DNA of 64,000 bases, taken from contig CAZGKV010000005.1 of assembly GCA_964526305.1 (NCBI GenBank), positions 41,546-105,545 of the forward strand. Reading direction: 5' to 3'. The position numbers and the translations under genes are program-made. Of the stretch, positions 29,342 through 41,162 are shown one piece after another. The DNA is from an uncultured Planctomycetales bacterium (GTDB lineage: Bacteria > Planctomycetota > MHYJ01 > JACPRB01). A model generated the notes under the pieces. The model did no database searches. It saw only the letters and a list, made by a program, of their open reading frames with translations, and had not been told where the DNA came from. Within the stretch, counting starts at the first letter, position 1, and every line of letters starts with the position of its first letter.

Positions 29342-30679
29342 ATGCCCATCCCCAAACGCGAATCGACTCAGATCCTCTCCGCCCTCGCCGCGGGAGTCGT
29401 CCCGCGCGTAGGGCTCTCCCACGTCGCCGTCGGGCGCCTCCCCGAGATCGCGGCCCTGAAGCAGGACCTGGAGGCCGTCGGCGCAGGCGGCGCGGCGATG
29501 CGCTTCATCGTCGGGCGCTACGGGTGCGGGAAGAGCTTTCTGCTCCACCTCGTCCGCACCGTCGCCTTCGATCACAAGTTCGTGGTGGCCGACGCGGACT
29601 TCACGCCGGAGCGGAAGCTCTATGCGACCGACGGGCAAGCCGTCGGGATCTACCGCGAGCTCATGAAGAACCTCTCGACGAAGACGATGCCGACGGGAAA
29701 CGCGCTCCCGGCGATCCTCGAACGATGGATCTCGGACGTTCAGGCAACGCTCGCGACTACCGGACAGGCGCCGGAGCCCCAAGCCGTGGAGTCGAAGATC
29801 GTCGAGACCGCCAATGCCATGCACGAGCTGGTCCACGGGTACGACTTCGGCGTCGTCCTGCGGAGCTACTATCGCGGCTACCTCGAAGGCAAGGAGGAAC
29901 TTAAGCGGGAGGCCCTCCGGTGGCTGCGGGGGGAATTCTCGACCAAGACCGAGGCGCGCGAGAAGCTCGGCGTCCGCGTGATCGTGGACGACGACAACTA
30001 CTACGACTATCTCAAGGTGATGGGGCGCTTCGTCCACGACATCGGATACGCGGGGCTGCTCGTCAATCTCGACGAGGGCGTAAACCTCTACAAGATCACC
30101 CACGCGAACTCGCGGTCCCGGAACTACGAGAAAGTTCTCTCCATTCTCAATGACTGTCTCCAAGGCGGGGCGTCGCACCTCGGATTCCTGATGAGCGGAA
30201 CCCCGGAATTCCTCGAGGACACCCGCCGAGGGCTCTACAGCTACGAGGCGCTTCGGTCCCGCCTCTCGTCGAACCGGTTCGAGAAGGAGGGGATGCGCGA
30301 TCTCTCGGGCCCGGTGGTCCGGCTGACGACGCTGACGAACGAGGAGGTCTTCGTCCTCCTGACGAAGATCCGCGACGTCCACGTCCAGCACCACGGGACG
30401 CCGAAGCCGCTCGAGGATGCCGCGCTCCAGCGATTCATGGAGCTTTCCCTGCAGCGCCTGGGGGCGAAGGAATTCCAGACTCCGCGCGACGTGGTGCGCG
30501 ATTTCGTGAATCTCCTGAATCTGCTCCAGCAGTATCCGGACAAGAAGTGGGAGGATCTCCTGGGGCAGGTGCCGCCGGCCGCCCCTCCTACGTCGTCGGA
30601 AGCGAGCCCGGCACCGCCCGAAGAACCCGCGATTCCGGCCGCGGATCCGATGGAGCGCTTCAAGAACTTCCAAGTGTGA
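29342..30679 (+). CDS. DUF2791/BrxD-like P-loop ATPase (Shango SngB-like)
   Basis: LAAGVVPRVGL, GRYGCGKS Walker A, LLVNLDEG Walker B, GLYSYEALRSRL, TPRDVVRDF. Confidence 0.88.
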   Translation: MPIPKRESTQILSALAAGVVPRVGLSHVAVGRLPEIAALKQDLEAVGAGGAAMRFIVGRYGCGKSFLLHLVRTVAFDHKFVVADADFTPERKLYATDGQAVGIYRELMKNLSTKTMPTGNALPAILERWISDVQATLATTGQAPEPQAVESKIVETANAMHELVHGYDFGVVLRSYYRGYLEGKEELKREALRWLRGEFSTKTEAREKLGVRVIVDDDNYYDYLKVMGRFVHDIGYAGLLVNLDEGVNLYKITHANSRSRNYEKVLSILNDCLQGGASHLGFLMSGTPEFLEDTRRGLYSYEALRSRLSSNRFEKEGMRDLSGPVVRLTTLTNEEVFVLLTKIRDVHVQHHGTPKPLEDAALQRFMELSLQRLGAKEFQTPRDVVRDFVNLLNLLQQYPDKKWEDLLGQVPPAAPPTSSEASPAPPEEPAIPAADPMERFKNFQV

Positions 30680-30739
30680 TTTTGGGAATCTTCCGGCTTC
30701 TTCCGTCGTAGTATTAGACATCGATTTGGAGGGTGCGGA

Positions 30740-31228
30740 ATGCATGCGATGATGTTGGCGGCAGCGATGGCCGTCTCCGGGGCCCAGGCGCCCGCGGACG
30801 ACGAACCCACCTATACCGTCGTCGTTCAAGTCGACGGGATCTGAGGGCTTTCCTGAATCGAGGCCATTGCGAACGGCCTCGGATCCCTGGAAGGGGTCAA
30901 GGTGGACGCCGCGCACGACGGAAAGAAAAATCTGTTCAAGCTCTCGGTGAAGGAGAAGCAGGCGCTTACTCCGCTCAAGATTAAGGCCGCGGTGCCCGAG
31001 GGGTACGACTACAAGGGGGCCACGGTCACTATCACCGGAACAGTCTCGAAGGAAGGAGAGGAGTACTCCTTCAAGGCGCGGGGCTCCGGCCAAATCTTCA
31101 CGCTCAAGCCGAACGAGGCCGTGAAAAACGGCGCCGGCAAGGTATGGACGATCACGGGAAAGTGGTCGCAAGCCCAGGAGAAGAAGCCCGCGGTCATCGA
31201 GGTGACTTCGGCCAAAGAACCCAAGTAG
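30740..31228 (+). CDS. Exported HMA-like putative selenoprotein with two Sec (VDGI-U-GLS-U-IEAI), 162 aa
   Basis: GGAGG RBS, ATG 30740 and a signal peptide. In-frame TGA at 30842-30844 and 30854-30856 sit at the Cys positions of an HMA G-x-C-xxx-C loop. The frame continues into ORF-track 30902-31228. Confidence 0.75.
30857..30898 (+). promoter_or_regulatory. Candidate bacterial SECIS hairpin(s)
   Basis: cgaggcc/ggcctcg 7-bp stem (30859-30881) and a second gatccc/ggggtc stem (30882-30898) directly after the two UGAs. Confidence 0.55.
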
Positions 31229-31236
31229 TTCTTCGG

Positions 31237-31271
31237 AATCCTCCGAGGCGCGAGTCTCGGAGGATTTTTTT
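31237..31271 (+). terminator. Rho-independent terminator
   Basis: aatcctccgag/ctcggaggatt perfect 11-bp stem running into a T7 tract, 8 nt after the TAG. Confidence 0.85.
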
Positions 31272-31724
31272 CTAGACGGGGTGGACGGGATCTCCGGCGC
31301 GGATCCGGCCGGTAACCAATATCTCCGCGCGCAAACCGCCGCGATGGGTGAGGGCCTGCTGGACCCCGGGGACCGTCAACCGCTCCAGAGTGCCGCAGGG
31401 CTCGCAGAGCTTGATTCCCCGAAGGCGCGCTTCCCCGACCAAGAACTCGCGATCCACCAGATGGTTCAAGGGCACGCCTTCCGTGAGGATGTTTCGGCGG
31501 GATCGGAGCCCGGTAACCTCAATTCGATAGTCGCGGCGGATCGCCTCGAGCGCCTCCGATTCGATGAGCGTGACTTGCTTGGGGGGCGGCTTCTTCGGGA
31601 GGTGGAAGTAGCGATCCCCCTCGAGCCCTAATCCCTCCACGGCCACGACTTCCGAGACCGCCACGGGATCGGACCCCTTCGCGGGAGCGATGTGGATAGA
31701 GAGAACGCGACCGCTCCAAGTCAT
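31272..31724 (-). CDS. MOSC domain protein
   Basis: GLGLEGDRY, RQ-like VTLIESE, SRRNILTEG, LCEPC, RGGLRAEILVTGRIRAGD. Confidence 0.85.
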   Translation of the reverse strand: MTWSGRVLSIHIAPAKGSDPVAVSEVVAVEGLGLEGDRYFHLPKKPPPKQVTLIESEALEAIRRDYRIEVTGLRSRRNILTEGVPLNHLVDREFLVGEARLRGIKLCEPCGTLERLTVPGVQQALTHRGGLRAEILVTGRIRAGDPVHPV

Positions 31725-36275: not shown

Positions 36276-36349
36276 CCGATGATATAGAAATAGCCAGGCT
36301 TCTTTTATATCATGATATAAAAGAAGCCTGGCTATTTCTATATCATCGG
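36276..36349. repeat. Perfect 74-bp spacerless palindrome, AT-rich
   Basis: 36276-36312 is the exact reverse complement of 36313-36349. Arms are 13/37 GC. Confidence 0.95.
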
Positions 36350-39300
36350 ACGGAAAGGCGGCTGGGACGAGAGGAGCCGCGCTGCTCCGGCGTGTAGTAC
36401 TCGTAGACGCTGGAAACGGGCACGGTCGCACGAAGGGGGAAGCGGGGACGGAGCGTGTATTCGAATTCGAACTGTCGGCCCTTGGCCACGCGGCCGAAGT
36501 AGAGCGCGATCTGGCGGCCGGCCAGGGTGTACTTGTCGATGGTCTTCTCGCGGACCATCTCCTCGAACGGCTCACGGTCGACGTCGAATCCCGGCGGGAT
36601 GCCGAGATCCACGATCACCATGAAGGTCCCCTCGCCATGGTAGGCCATCCGGGCTCGTGCCTTCAGCGGCTCGTTCCGTGCCATTTCGGTACGATCGTAT
36701 CGAACCTCAATTTCCAGGGGAGGTTGCGTCTCCGGCGGCACCCGGTCCCAGGGCAGATAGTACCGCCCCGTCACCTGTACGCTCGCCCGCAAGTCTCCGT
36801 CCGCGTCGATCTCGACTTGGTTTACGCCTGGGCCCGTAAGCGCCGTTACATCCACGGCTTGGGCGACATCGAAGTTCGTTCCGTCGATCGGCCGGAATCC
36901 CTCGCCGACCTCACGTCCGTTGACACGCAGGCGAAGAGCGACCCCCTTCGCGGGCGGTTTCGACTTGCCCGCCTCCAGGAGAGCCTTGAGCGCGAGAATG
37001 GTGGCCTGTGTCGACCCCCAGGCGCCGGTCGCGTCCTTGTCCCGGGCGATTGCGGACAAGCCTCCGTCCGCCACGGGAGAATCGCGGAGCGCCATCGTTG
37101 CCAAGGCCGTCGTCTCGACCCCGCCGGACTTTCCCCAGGAATAGAAAAGTCCTTGCCCGGGCATCGTCCACCGGGCCGCACCCTGCTCCCGCGTAGCCAT
37201 TCCCTCGAGCCGAGCCAGGATTCGCGGGTCGGGGTGGGCGTTGGCGATGAGAGCGAGCGCATATGGATCTTCCAGCTTTTCCCATCGCGATTGCAGGTAC
37301 GCGACCGCTCGGGCGTTCGGACGACCCGCCGCGCGGAGCGCCCAGGCCACGTACGCGGTTGTCGCGACCGGGTCCGACCCACTCCATCGTTTTTCGCCCG
37401 ACCAGGATCCGTCGGAATTCTGTCGCGACAGGAGAAGTCGTACCGCCCGATCGATGACGGCCGAATCCACGGGGTGGACCTTCGCCATATCGACGAACTC
37501 GAGAACACCGTACGCCGTGAGAACGGTGTTCGCCGGCGCCTTTCCGTACCAGTCGAACCCGCCCCCCGACACCTCGAAAGTAAGAAGCCGCTGGTATCCC
37601 TGGCTCAGCGCCTGCTCCAACTTCATCTGCCACTCGGGCGTCAACTGACGCGTCTCCTTGAGATAACCCATCACGAGTACGTTCGGATAGGTCACGCTCG
37701 TGGTTTGTTCGAATCAGCCGTAGGGCATCCGCACGAGCGCTTCGAGCCCGGTGACGATCTCCGAGAAGCTCGACGGATAGAGGCGCACCCAGGTGCGGTG
37801 CGCGCCTTCGATCGACTCGCGGGGAATCTCGACCTGGAGCCGCGAAGAGGTGCGAAGTCGATCTCCCGCGGCGAAGGGGAAGGCCTTGCCGTCGGGCATG
37901 ACCTCGAGGGTGCGCGCGACGCGATCCGCGAAGCTTGCCGCGGTGGCCAGGACCTCGAGCCGATGCGTCCCGAACTTCGCCGCGCGGATCCGATAGAGGA
38001 TCGAAGTCACGCGCTGCGGCTCGACTTCGACGGACTTCTCGGCCGGATCCAGAAGATCGATCCCCGCCTCCGCGGTAAAGCGAAGCGTCACGGTGTCGCG
38101 CTTGTCCGTAAAGTTGTACACCGCGACGGGAACCCAAAGCTCGTCCCCTTGCGTCAGCGAAACGGGCAGATCGAGATCTACGAAGAAGGGCTGGAAGACT
38201 TTGATGCCGTCCACCCCGCTCCCCAGCCGACCGTCGCGGGAAACCGCGCTCATCGTCATTCGCCAGGTGGTGATCGAGTCGGCGCCTCGGAACCGCACGC
38301 GAGCCCGGCCGTGTTCGTCCGTGAGGATTTCCGAGTTCCAATAGAGCGTTTCCGGGAACCACTCGCGCAGGCGCGGGGGATCGGACTTGGCGGGATCCGA
38401 CTTGGATCCCGTCGCGCCGCCTCCCCCCGTCGTTTCCGATCGCAAGGCCATGCCTTTGGGGTGTTGCGAGAACAAGGCGAAGAATCCTCCGCACAACAGA
38501 ATCCCGCACACGACTGCCTCGGCGACGATGCAACCGACCCGGCCACGGACGGCCTCGCGCACTGCGTACACGAACGTCCCGATCACGAGGACGAGGAAGA
38601 ACGCGATGCCGGCGATCGCTCCGGCGATTCGCGCCCGCTCGTTGTGTCGATTGATCCACCGGTTGATGGTGTCTTGCTTGTCCCCATGTCGGCAGCGCGC
38701 GACCGCACGGTTCTCCTCGGATTCCTGCGCCGCCGCGGCCCGGACTCGATCCGTCATCGGCGCTTTGAGCTGGTACCGCGGCTTCAGGAGGTCTTCGACG
38801 ATTCGGAAATAATCCCGCTCCAGCCCGGGCCGCGCCTCCGCAAGGGCGTAGACCGCCTCGTCCACGACTCCCAAGGTGATCGCCGAAACGACCGGCCGAC
38901 CCGTGGAGTCCAGGACTTCGAACTCGATGGAGATTTCCTCTCCGGGCCGGTACTCGCTCTTCGATAGCTTCGGCCGGATCTGAAGCTCCGTCGGAAGATC
39001 GACGATGACCACTCTCGAGTCGCGGACGATGTCGCCGTCCTCACGGATACGGTAGGCCGAAAGTCGCACGGTGCCGGTGAGTTCCGTCGGAAGATCGAGA
39101 GGAAGCACGCCCCGGCCGGCCCTGACCTCAAGCGTGCGGGTCAGGATCGTCTGGTCGTTTTTCACCAGGTCGACGAAAAGCGTGAGATCGCGCGCGGCAT
39201 ACGCCGTGACGGAGAGCGTCTCGCCGGCCCGGGCGGTGGGCTCAACCTGGAGAGCGAAATCCTTCGCCCCGAGTCGGCTGGAAGGGTGATACGTGAGAGA

Positions 39301-40698
39301 GGCACGCCGTCCGGCTCCGTCTTTCGCGTCGATCCGAACCGGATCGAGCCGTCGTCCGATCGCGACGACTCCGACTCCCGCGGAATCGGTCGCGACCGAC
39401 CCCCCCGGAGTGGTCAGCTCGCATCGGGCGGGCCGTCCGTCCGGATACGTCGTGATCACGAAGAGCGAATTGTCGATTCCGGCGACCACTTCTCCGAACA
39501 CCGGCACGACCTCGATTACGATCGGGTCCCGAGAGACGGGGATGCGGATCTTCTTCCGCTCGGTCTGCCCCGCTCCGTCCACCACCGTCGCTTCGAGCGG
39601 GACGTCCCCCTCGTGGGGCGTCAGACGCATCTCGAAAGTCCACCGCCCGTTCGAGTCGAGCCGTCCCGACAGCCGCTCCGGGCCGGAAAGCTCGACGCGG
39701 CCGTCGGCCACCGGCCGGGGAAAAAAGTACCGCGCCTCGACCGTCCCCCGAATCGTGTCGCCGGGCGCGTAGAAGGAAGAATCCGTCGTTACCGTCACGC
39801 CGAATTTCGGAAGGACATATCGACTCACCTCGACGGTGCGTTCGCTCTCGACGGCGGCGACGCGCGCCCGGATGCGCCATCGTCCGAGGATTACCTCGTC
39901 GGCCAGGCGGAAATCGACCGCGAAGATCCCGAAGTCGGAGGTCGTCCCTTCCTTCTTGTAGACCTTCGTTCCGTTCGGGTCCTCGATTTCGATGACGGCC
40001 GACGTCCGCGCGTACGGCTTCATCCGGAAATTGTCCATCGTGAGGGAGCGGATGTGGATCTCTTGCGTCGGCTGATACACGGGCTTGTCGGTGGTGAGGA
40101 GGATGCGGGCGGGTCGTTCGATGCGGATCGATCCGGTGAGCGTATCCGATGCCAGGGCGGAAGAGACTTCCACCGTGAGCGTCGCGGCGCCTTCCAGGTC
40201 GCTCGGAAGATCGAAAGCGAGCTCCGCGGAGCCGTTCGACGCGGTCTGGGCCGCCGGCGATTCCAGAACGCGCTCGCCGATTCGGACGCGCCCGCGAACG
40301 CTCGCGCCGGCGACGGGCCTCCCGCCGCGGTGATCCGAGACGAGGACGCGCGCCACGGTGCGCGTGCCCGAATGCCAGAGCGTCCCCGCGACGACGTGGA
40401 CCTCCTGCGGATCCGCCTCTTGGACATTGACCCAGACGAGGCCCGCCGTCATGGCGACGAGGACGAGCGCGGCCGCCACCGCCGGAATTCGCCACCACCG
40501 GCGGCGCCGAACGAGCACCGGCTTGGCGCCGGGGGGGGCGAATCGTCCCGCCGCCCGTTCCAGCTCCGCGTCGGCTCCTCGGAACTGTTCGAGACGGCTC
40601 CGGCACTTCGCGCACTCGGAGAGATGGCGCTCCATCTCCTCGCGGTCGGCGAGCTCGCCGTCCAGGTATAGGCTGAGCTTGAGGTCGTCGCAATCCAT
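36343..40698 (-). CDS. zf-HC2 anti-sigma/alpha-2-macroglobulin fusion with in-frame UGA at the thioester Cys (putative selenoprotein, 1451 aa)
   Basis: N-terminal HLSECAKC and TM helix, MG-domain motifs (TDKPVYQP, YVLPKF), FPETLYW, FQPFFVDLDLP. RMPYG-TGA(37716-37714)-FEQTTSVTYPN continues in frame into TED and receptor-domain sequence. Confidence 0.8.
37672..37702 (-). promoter_or_regulatory. Candidate bacterial SECIS hairpin for the macroglobulin UGA
   Basis: Starts 11 nt after the UGA: cacgag/ctcgtg (6 bp) plus cgt/acg (3 bp), with an 11-nt loop beginning with G 20 nt after the UGA. Confidence 0.55.
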
Positions 40699-40700
40699 CT

Positions 40701-41162
40701 TCACACCTTTCCCGAGATCATCGCGCGAACTCGGTGGAGTTTTTCGCCGACGGCGGTCACCGTCATTCCGAGAACTTCCGCAATCTGGGCGTACGGCATC
40801 CCGTCGACATATCGAAGAAGGAGAATCCGGCGGTAATCCTCCCGAAGACCGTCGACGAGCCGCATCACATGGGCGATGCGGTCGTCCGGTTCCTCGGGGC
40901 GGGGCGCGGCCAGGTCCATCGCGTGCTCCTCGATCGACACGGTAGCGCGGCGGGACCGGAGGACGTCGATCGCCGCGTTCCTCGTCAGCGTGTACAGCCA
41001 GGTTTTCCGATGGAGGACGCCGTCGACGGATTTCCACGCGCGGAGGAAAACCTCCTGCGTTAGGTCGTCGGCGGCGCTTTCGTCGCGGAGGTACGCCCGC
41101 GCGAGAGCGCGAACCATGCGTTCATGCTCGCGCACGAAGGCGTCGAAGTCCGCGCCGGTCAT
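40701..41162 (-). CDS. ECF sigma-70 factor, cognate of the macroglobulin-fused anti-sigma
   Basis: ADDLTQEVFLRAW, KTWLYTLTRNAAID, YAQIAEVLGMTVTAVGEKLHR. Stop lies 2 nt before the anti-sigma ATG. Confidence 0.88.
   Translation of the reverse strand: MTGADFDAFVREHERMVRALARAYLRDESAADDLTQEVFLRAWKSVDGVLHRKTWLYTLTRNAAIDVLRSRRATVSIEEHAMDLAAPRPEEPDDRIAHVMRLVDGLREDYRRILLLRYVDGMPYAQIAEVLGMTVTAVGEKLHRVRAMISGKV

Follow-up and report, generated by a model that had tools for sequence, protein, structure and literature searches.

A candidate two-selenocysteine HMA-like protein family with tandem hairpins behind its UGA codons in a Planctomycetales genome

Can two UGA codons only 12 nt apart both be read as selenocysteine (Sec, U), and by which signal would each of them be recognized? 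The question is raised by a gene at positions 30740-31228 of a 64,000-nt stretch of DNA from an uncultured Planctomycetales bacterium (contig CAZGKV010000005.1), referred to here as the window. The complete coding sequence lies on the forward strand (30740..31228) and has 162 codons followed by TAG (31226-31228). Its frame contains two TGA codons, at 30842..30844 (UGA1, codon 35) and 30854..30856 (UGA2, codon 39), and translates as MHAMMLAAAMAVSGAQAPADDEPTYTVVVQVDGI-TGA-GLS-TGA-IEAIANGLGSLEGVK...TSAKEPK, with the residues IEAIANGL after the second TGA. We consider it likely that this gene encodes a 162-residue pre-protein in which both UGAs are recoded, giving Sec35 and Sec39, and that its product is an exported HMA-OB protein with a proposed soft-metal site and one hairpin per UGA.

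A first-pass annotation of the window, made from the sequence itself, had proposed a hidden selenoprotein at this place. It named as the case against itself homologues that genuinely start at 30902, without the upstream HMA-like segment. An exhaustive HMMER search with residues 40-162 of the window protein found 29 relatives, and a profile search brought in a further 46 proteins, eight of them full-length C-G-x-x-C forms. When the complete sequence, with U replaced by C, was used in a word-indexed protein search, the only match was the window's own 108-aa tail. The first two full-length relatives, P0003 (...WTVVVEVDAKSICGNDCITAIANGL...) and P0013 (...TVVIELGNVCGRDCVALLEKAL...), combine a hydrophobic N-terminus with Cys at precisely the two positions. 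The other protein-only full-length C-G-x-x-C entries are P0034-36, 38, 44, 48, 51 and 60, and the Cys-Cys motifs of full-length homologues include ICGNDC, NVCGRDC and NVCGKSC. Many other relatives start 1-6 residues past the second position, as expected of truncated gene calls. The DNA upstream of these short forms encodes a signal-peptide-like start, then D-[DE]-P-T-Y-x-V-x-V, and then either V-TGA-G-x-x-TGA-[IV] or V-TGA-G-P-S-TGC-I, all of it in the reading frame of the tail. These short entries are truncations made in gene calling, and no homologue genuinely starts at the tail, so the case that would have spoken against the proposal was not seen.

In all, 23 distinct homologous genes were recovered (window counted): 10 U-U, nine U-C and four C-C. 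The double-UGA forms (U-G-x-x-U) are the window, L003, L004, L024, L005, L025, L026, L027, L014 and the variant L009. UGA followed by Cys (U-G-x-x-C) is found in L007, from a Planctomycetota metagenome-assembled genome, in L008 and in a lipoprotein clade (L010-13, L017, L018 and L030), while L016, L019, L020 and L022 are Cys-Cys. The column of codon 35 is Sec in 19 of the homologous genes and that of codon 39 in 10, and both are Cys in the rest. The 19 Sec forms share the flanks D-E-P-T-Y...V-U-G-x-x-[UC]-[IV]...G-V-K and keep the frame on both sides of the UGAs, with the conserved D-E-P-T-Y-x-V-x-V located N-terminal to UGA1. A 17-sequence full-length alignment (U written as C) is invariant at both U/C columns, at the Gly after the first and at five residues of the C-terminal domain. 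The double-TGA homologues are divergent and have 31-48% protein identity to the window protein.

Sec/Cys pairs with conserved flanks are the standard bioinformatic criterion for a selenoprotein (PMC1976440), and the family of the window gene provides such pairs. The expectation of the first-pass annotation that homologues would carry Cys or Sec at the two positions was borne out by full-length homologues with Cys at exactly both of them and by many independent ones with TGA at one or both. Sec machinery is known in some Planctomycetes (PMC4807772), and we infer that Sec, rather than another amino acid, is inserted at the UGAs. Public gene calls have split every Sec form that we found into a stub of 31-42 aa and an unnamed tail of 99-137 aa; the stub of L004, cut at a contig end, has only 24 aa. 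One truncated member carries the Joint Genome Institute (JGI) label "copper chaperone CopZ".

The variant L009 has the motif F-U-M-T-G-V-C-U-Q (L009:3055-3075), in which the UGAs are 18 nt apart and an extra Cys stands beside the second Sec. This gene has both of the hairpins described below, and its hairpin 2 lies at the same distance from UGA2 as in the other double-UGA genes. The Gly codon that follows UGA1 (window 30845-30847) is GGG in 8/10 double-UGA and 5/8 single-UGA genes and GGC or GGA in all four Cys-Cys genes. This preference for GGG may be a codon-context effect on UGA recoding.

Two hairpins follow the UGAs in the window, as had been noticed in the first pass. Hairpin 1 (CGAGGCC-AUUGCGAAC-GGCCUCG, 30859..30881) is the candidate Sec insertion sequence (SECIS) for UGA1, and hairpin 2 (GAUCCC-UGGAA-GGGGUC, 30882..30898) is the candidate for UGA2. 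The two abut without a spacer (30881/30882). The loop of hairpin 1 starts 21 nt past UGA1, or 24 nt if inner U-A pairs give a GCG triloop, and 9-12 nt past UGA2. The loop of hairpin 2 starts 31-32 nt past UGA2 and 43-44 nt past UGA1. The distances reported earlier, 24 nt from the first UGA and 31 nt from the second, agree with these measurements, the former when the GCG triloop is drawn. Rfam gave no matches at gathering thresholds in the whole window, and it is through comparative evidence only that the hairpins appear to be more than chance.

For this comparison, fixed segments were folded and a hairpin was counted as stable if its minimum free energy (MFE) was -7.5 kcal/mol or lower. Hairpin 1 spans about +15 to +41 (U of UGA1 = 0) and is stable in 19/19 Sec forms versus 1/4 Cys-Cys forms. 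Its sequence and register vary by lineage: the window and L014 share the stem CGAGGCC/GGCCUCG, L007 and L027 have CGCAUC/GAUGCG, L005 has GAGCUCCU/AGGAGCUC, L004 has GUGAAGUC/GACUUCAC, L024 has GUGAAGC/GCUUCAC, and the lipoprotein clade has GACGUGCU-GGA-AGCGCGUC. Hairpin 2 spans +40 to +56, over the codons for G-R-L-E-G-V, and was found to be stable in 10/10 double-UGA genes versus 1/13 others (Fisher p ~1e-5, uncorrected for phylogeny). It reads G(G/A)CGCC-UGGAA-GGCGUC in nine double-UGA forms. In the window, a change of Arg to Ser (CGC to UCC) is matched by a change of GGC to GGG, so that a G-C pair becomes C-G.

Pairing and codon use were also compared. On 11 aligned sequences, 89.5% of cells are paired versus 28-45% with slid partners, and 7/13 pairs change on both sides, which none of 500 shuffles reached. 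Both hairpins have such compensatory changes, hairpin 2 is 100% paired in these sequences, and synonymous-codon shuffles give a concordant result. Within hairpin 2 of the double-UGA forms, synonymous sites are frozen (Arg CGC 9/9, Leu CTG 10/10, Gly GGC 9/10), and the only gene that departs from Gly GGC is that of the window, with GGG, where Ser UCC takes the place of the Arg codon. Other conserved columns are not frozen, as Leu splits into CTC and CTG and Gly is mixed. The loop Glu codon is GAA in 6/8, whereas other conserved Glu columns have GAG in 7-9 sequences each. A neighbour-joining tree of the protein part downstream of the hairpins places at least three separate U-C lineages and a C-C clade among the U-U forms. 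L007, the lipoprotein clade and the C-C clade have lost hairpin 2, and L008 is the only form without a double UGA that keeps it. The closest contrast is a sister pair, in which L027 (double UGA) has hairpin 2 and L007 (UGA then Cys) does not.

The consensus for a bacterial SECIS (bSECIS) is a stem of 4 bp or more with a loop of 3-9 nt whose first two positions include a G (N1-G-[G/U]-N-N2), 16-37 nt from UGA to loop and an MFE of -7.5 kcal/mol or lower (PMC13188914). Hairpin 2 agrees with all of these relative to UGA2 in 10/10 sequences, and its U-GGA-A loop fits the published pattern. Relative to UGA1, hairpin 1 agrees in spacing, stem and energy in 19/19 sequences and has the loop G directly in 14/19. 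The spacings separate the two hairpins across the family. Hairpin 1 lies 21-27 nt from UGA1, which fits, and 9-15 nt from UGA2, which is under the 16-nt minimum; hairpin 2 fits UGA2 (31-32 nt) and fails UGA1 (43-44 nt). Hairpin 1 begins 2-5 nt past UGA2, so that a ribosome with UGA2 in its A site already holds the 5' arm of this hairpin, necessarily melted, within the mRNA channel.

These comparative data point to a route by which both codons could be decoded. At UGA1, SelB·Sec-tRNA would be presented by hairpin 1. Four codons further on, the 5' arm of hairpin 1 would have been drawn into the mRNA channel, and the adjacent hairpin 2 would present a second SelB complex for UGA2. We infer that one SelB-binding hairpin per UGA is the most economical reading. 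The first-pass annotation had suggested that there may be one hairpin per Sec; the co-occurrence of hairpin 2 with UGA2 and the spacings, which fit only that pairing, support this suggestion short of proof. It is quite possible, although we stop short of calling it probable, that the locus is the first natural case of two adjacent, dedicated bacterial SECIS elements, one for each of two UGAs 12 nt apart, in an exported HMA-OB protein with a bis-selenolate U-x3-U soft-metal site, from a family absent from the searched catalogues. If so, the family would record the changes of state, with hairpin 2 decayed in two of the three lineages in which UGA2 became Cys and both hairpins decayed where both codons reverted.

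The protein is predicted to consist of two domains behind an export signal. An HMA-like ferredoxin-fold domain of the CopZ/MerP type occupies approximately 30809..31048, and the U-G-L-S-U motif reaches from the loop behind strand 1 into the start of helix 1. When a family profile from the full-length alignment was compared with the PDB, it matched domains of ATP7B, B. subtilis CopA and CopZ (E 5e-6 to 1e-3). The Pfam HMA family (PF00403) matched 7/17 family members at E <= 1, the best at 5.9e-8; P0032, at 25.8 bits, is barely over the gathering threshold of 24.8. An AlphaFold2 model of the Cys homologue P0038 has a pLDDT (predicted local distance difference test) of 91, a pTM (predicted template modelling score) of 0.83 and the order beta-alpha-beta-beta-alpha-beta (E17-24, H30-41, E46-52, E57-63, H70-83, E92-106). 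Its first Cys is in the loop after strand 1 and its second in the first turn of helix 1. With this model, Foldseek retrieved CopZ 6ff2 (TM-score on target 0.77), MerP 1osd and metal-binding domains of the ATPase ATP7B, with TM-scores on target of 0.6-0.77. The HMA-likeness claimed in the first pass therefore finds support at the family level, from profile, Pfam, model and Foldseek together. One qualification applies to its proposed HMA metal loop. The two residues are in the right position, but their spacing is x3 rather than that of the canonical CxxC. In the profile alignment the second Cys/Sec coincides with the second HMA Cys and the first lies one residue ahead of the first HMA Cys. The family motif is thus [VI]-[UC]-G-x-x-[UC]-[IV], or C/U-x3-C/U, and departs from the HMA metal motif M-x-C-x-x-C.

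The C-terminal 65-70 aa appear to form an OB fold (approximately 31019..31219) with an invariant A-R-G-S motif, a point missing from the first-pass annotation. An AlphaFold2 model of window residues 88-162 (pLDDT 87) has E7-18, E21-26, E32-36, H39-42, E48-56 and E65-72, which corresponds to the five-stranded barrel of an OB fold, where a helix separates strands 3 and 4. The last HMA strand continues into the first strand of this domain. The PDB matches listed by Foldseek for the C-terminal domain are almost all OB folds, among them Stn1, RPA, the AspRS N-domain, the NlpE C-domain (TM-score on query, TMq, 0.70) and YgiW (0.63), and Pfam DUF5818 gave weak matches in two family members. The invariance of A-R-G-S suggests a ligand or partner site.

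The window protein begins with a signal-peptide-like N-terminus, MHAMMLAAAMAVSGAQA (30740..30790), followed by the conserved D-E-P-T-Y as the presumed start of the mature protein. A short hydrophobic N-terminus is common to the full-length homologues without exception. The lipoboxes VWGC, SGGC and LVAC replace the plain signal-peptidase-I-type end in L010-L013, L017, L018, L030 and L020, and these clades are presumably lipid-anchored versions of the same protein. The protein is probably exported, because of these hydrophobic N-termini and of the lipoboxes in some clades.

Taken together, the two Sec residues of I-U-G-L-S-U-I would sit where CopZ, MerP and P-type ATPase domains hold their Cys ligands, but x3 rather than x2 apart. 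The HMA-type domain would be joined rigidly to the small OB fold through the shared strand, in a mature protein that is exported and in some relatives lipid-anchored. In the periplasm, the Sec pair would then bind a soft metal, for example Cu(I), Hg(II), Ag(I) or Cd(II), through two selenolates, and could close to a diselenide when free of metal. We favour such a site of two selenolates on an exported metallochaperone scaffold. This functional assignment rests on the fold, since no conserved gene neighbourhood was found across the loci examined. No mer genes were seen near any locus examined, and no metal-homeostasis genes nearby.

Several results weigh against two Sec residues with a hairpin each in a metal-binding protein. 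No tRNA-Sec was found within the 64-kb window, which has no detected tRNA genes at all, and selA, selB and selD are missing from the 19 window open reading frames (ORFs) scanned with Pfam. The 101-nt region of the window alone folds no better than shuffles (z = -0.77). The loop G is absent from hairpin 1 of the window, L004, L014, L027 and L009 unless alternative inner pairs are drawn; in the window, it takes the GCG triloop. Hairpin 2 is kept in the single-UGA form L008, and it overlaps the conserved peptide G-R-L-E-G-V, so that part of its conservation is at the protein level. For the protein, the window sequence alone reached no threshold in Pfam or NCBIfam and gave no HMA match, its weak matches being CopZ (15.8 bits) and NF041115 (12.6 bits). 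A recognisable metal site was not seen in the OB domain, and the want of a conserved neighbourhood belongs here as well.

Other explanations of the UGAs and of the second hairpin have to be set against this evidence. Public gene calls treat the gene as two pieces, as they would a pseudogene or split gene in which two nonsense mutations left a stub of 34 aa and a tail of 108 aa that is translated on its own. However, 10 divergent homologues have TGA at both of these codons, with conserved flanking frame and residues and without other stops or frameshifts, the HMA fold spans the UGA codons, and the hairpins follow them. Decay of this kind is very improbable, and the Sec/Cys pairs with conserved flanks effectively refute it. 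Assembly error is unlikely as a source of the TGAs because identical DNA is present in two other public assemblies, perhaps from the same sample. Genome-wide reassignment of UGA was also rejected; TGA terminates three of the nine window genes checked and is therefore an ordinary stop here. A different amino acid would be inserted if one or both UGAs were decoded as Cys by a SECIS-dependent tRNA of the tRNA(ReC)/selC*-type, giving C-x3-C or U-x3-C. Such decoding is described for tRNA(ReC)-like tRNAs, which are enriched in genomes with UXXU hydrogenases (PMC13582414, citing Vargas-Rodriguez 2018). We regard Cys insertion as improbable in this organism, where nothing positive points to such a tRNA. 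In addition, UGA and hairpin have been kept across very divergent lineages beside Cys-codon forms, which suggests that UGA gives something that Cys does not. A single SECIS, either hairpin 1 alone or a stacked unit of both hairpins, might instead serve both UGAs, and hairpin 2 might then slow the ribosome, stabilize the mRNA or simply encode G-R-L-E-G-V. This has a precedent in a 2026 study of UXXU [NiFeSe] hydrogenases, in which CXXU and UXXU forms share one SECIS architecture, and a single element was proposed to serve both codons (PMC13582414). The abutting hairpins could stack, and the hairpin 2 of L008 would be accounted for. The extra UGA here, however, is downstream, 2-5 nt from the base of hairpin 1 and closer to its loop than the 16-nt minimum. 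Moreover, decay of hairpin 2 is seen in both other single-UGA lineages as well as in the Cys-Cys clade, and the frozen synonymous codons and compensatory swaps show selection at the RNA level that is specific to double-UGA forms. We consider a shared SECIS fairly unlikely, and one hairpin per UGA remains our preferred account.

The purpose of the Sec pair can also be read differently. U-x3-U could be a redox centre (diselenide/selenol), and the protein a periplasmic oxidoreductase or a scavenger of peroxides or electrophiles built on an HMA scaffold. Redox proteins that carry Sec in CxxC-like motifs make up most of the bacterial selenoproteins (PMC9312934, PMC2398784). The x3 spacing and the invariant Gly differ from the metal-binding GMxCxxC, and the lack of metal-homeostasis genes nearby is in keeping with a redox role. 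On the other hand, the fold and the position of both residues are those of metallochaperones, and HMA-type selenoproteins annotated as metal-binding exist already (NF041115 and the MerT/CopZ-like NF045683). To our knowledge, HMA domains are not known as oxidoreductases. A redox centre is therefore a serious possibility that we hold to be rather unlikely, and the soft-metal site is the function that we prefer.

The remaining features are those of a self-contained gene, with its own ribosome-binding site and its own terminator. ATG 30740 is the first start codon past the in-frame TGA at 30677-30679, which is the stop of the upstream gene, and a Shine-Dalgarno-like GGAGG (30728..30732) lies 7 nt 5' of it. 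An intrinsic terminator at 31235..31274 has a 15-bp stem (31235-31268) with a 4-nt loop, a U run and an 11-nt perfect inverted repeat; it folds at -25 kcal/mol (z = -4.99) and was missed by a simple terminator scan. The ribosome-binding site, start codon, signal-peptide-like start, two TGAs, TAG and strong terminator listed in the first pass are thus all in place. The mechanical ORF list recovers only 30902-31228 (108 aa) of the gene, which had also been pointed out.

The neighbours in the window include a BrxD-like ATPase, a MOSC protein and an Lhr helicase. The upstream gene (29342-30679, forward strand) scores 520 bits with Pfam BrxC_BrxD and 174 bits with the NCBIfam BrxD equivalog, for which the cut-off is 350. 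No further BREX gene was seen nearby, where the neighbours are Ser/Thr kinases carrying TPR or WD40 repeats. At other loci, the only recurring neighbours seen were a Leu/Phe-tRNA protein transferase gene and an ECF sigma factor with an ExbD-like gene. The former is directly downstream in L005 (3934-4512) and L006 (1155-1733), which are duplicate assemblies of one lineage, and also on the contig of the separate protein P0040; the latter pair is downstream in L004 and L024. The other neighbours are unrelated to one another.

A second gene of the window has a candidate recoded UGA, and we counted it as context in favour of Sec. This alpha-2-macroglobulin-like gene (36343-41037, reverse strand) has one in-frame TGA (37716-37714) exactly at the thioester Cys, …VRMPYG-TGA-FEQTTS…, where the canonical motif is CxEQ. 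A hairpin follows this TGA (-22.3 kcal/mol, z = -2.25). Read as Sec, the codon would place a selenoester where the thioester stands, and "Macroglobulin" is absent from the 2026 selenoproteome review. UGA recoding in this organism, if true, would bear on this neighbour.

No HMA-OB, UxxxU or planctomycetal exported family of this kind is included in the 2022 and 2026 selenoproteome reviews. Open-access full text yielded no mention of UxxxU or of HMA selenoproteins together with SECIS, and NCBIfam release 20 has no model for an HMA-OB U-G-x-x-U family. Judged by these comparisons, the gene would represent a new family of double-Sec HMA-like proteins, of which the tandem hairpins are the more original element. 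Such a selenoprotein family would be invisible to current annotation, in which its Sec forms are split into a stub and a nameless tail. How two UGAs a few codons apart are decoded was posed explicitly as a question for the UXXU hydrogenases in 2026 (PMC13582414), and a natural series of U-U, U-C and C-C forms, with one hairpin tracking each UGA, would make it testable. A two-selenolate site on an envelope metallochaperone scaffold, if true, would be a model for Se versus S ligands in the handling of soft metals (Cu, Hg, Ag).

Among known systems, the closest in kind is NF041115, "UxxU_metal_bind", a small HMA-type protein in which both metal-motif Cys are replaced by Sec (two Sec) and which is a predicted soft-metal binder. 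The Olavius symbiont study and the selenoproteome reviews of 2022 and 2026 list it as "putative mercuric reductase". Its motif is UxxU in a single domain with a 74-position profile, whereas the protein described here has U-G-x-x-U, a signal peptide and an OB domain. The present family does not belong to it and falls far below its cut-off: the window protein scores 12.6 bits against 95, and the best of 17 members of the present family reached E = 1.6e-3. NF045683, a MerT/CopZ fusion-like heavy-metal transport selenoprotein, also has an HMA-related Sec module and matched two members weakly (best E = 1.7e-3), but it is a membrane transporter fusion and has no significant match to the window protein. 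Both precedents for metal binding are themselves only predicted. MerP and CopZ (PF00403) share the beta-alpha-beta-beta-alpha-beta order and two chalcogen ligands at the strand-1 loop and the N-terminus of helix 1, and MerP is also exported; they differ in having Cys rather than Sec, the motif GMTCxxC and no OB domain. The MerP model TIGR02052 matched 6/17 members weakly, the best at E = 8.3e-4, below its cut-off. YgiW/BOF and the NlpE C-domain superpose on the C-terminal domain (TMq 0.63-0.70) and share an envelope location, but the likeness is at the level of the fold, with 13-19% identity and no shared motif, and nucleic-acid-binding OB folds score equally. The UXXU [NiFeSe] hydrogenases likewise have two close UGAs in a metal-ligand motif and mixed U/C states across lineages (PMC13582414). 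In the hydrogenases the added UGA precedes a SECIS that has stayed unchanged, and a single element is proposed for both codons, whereas in the family described here a second hairpin tracks the downstream UGA.

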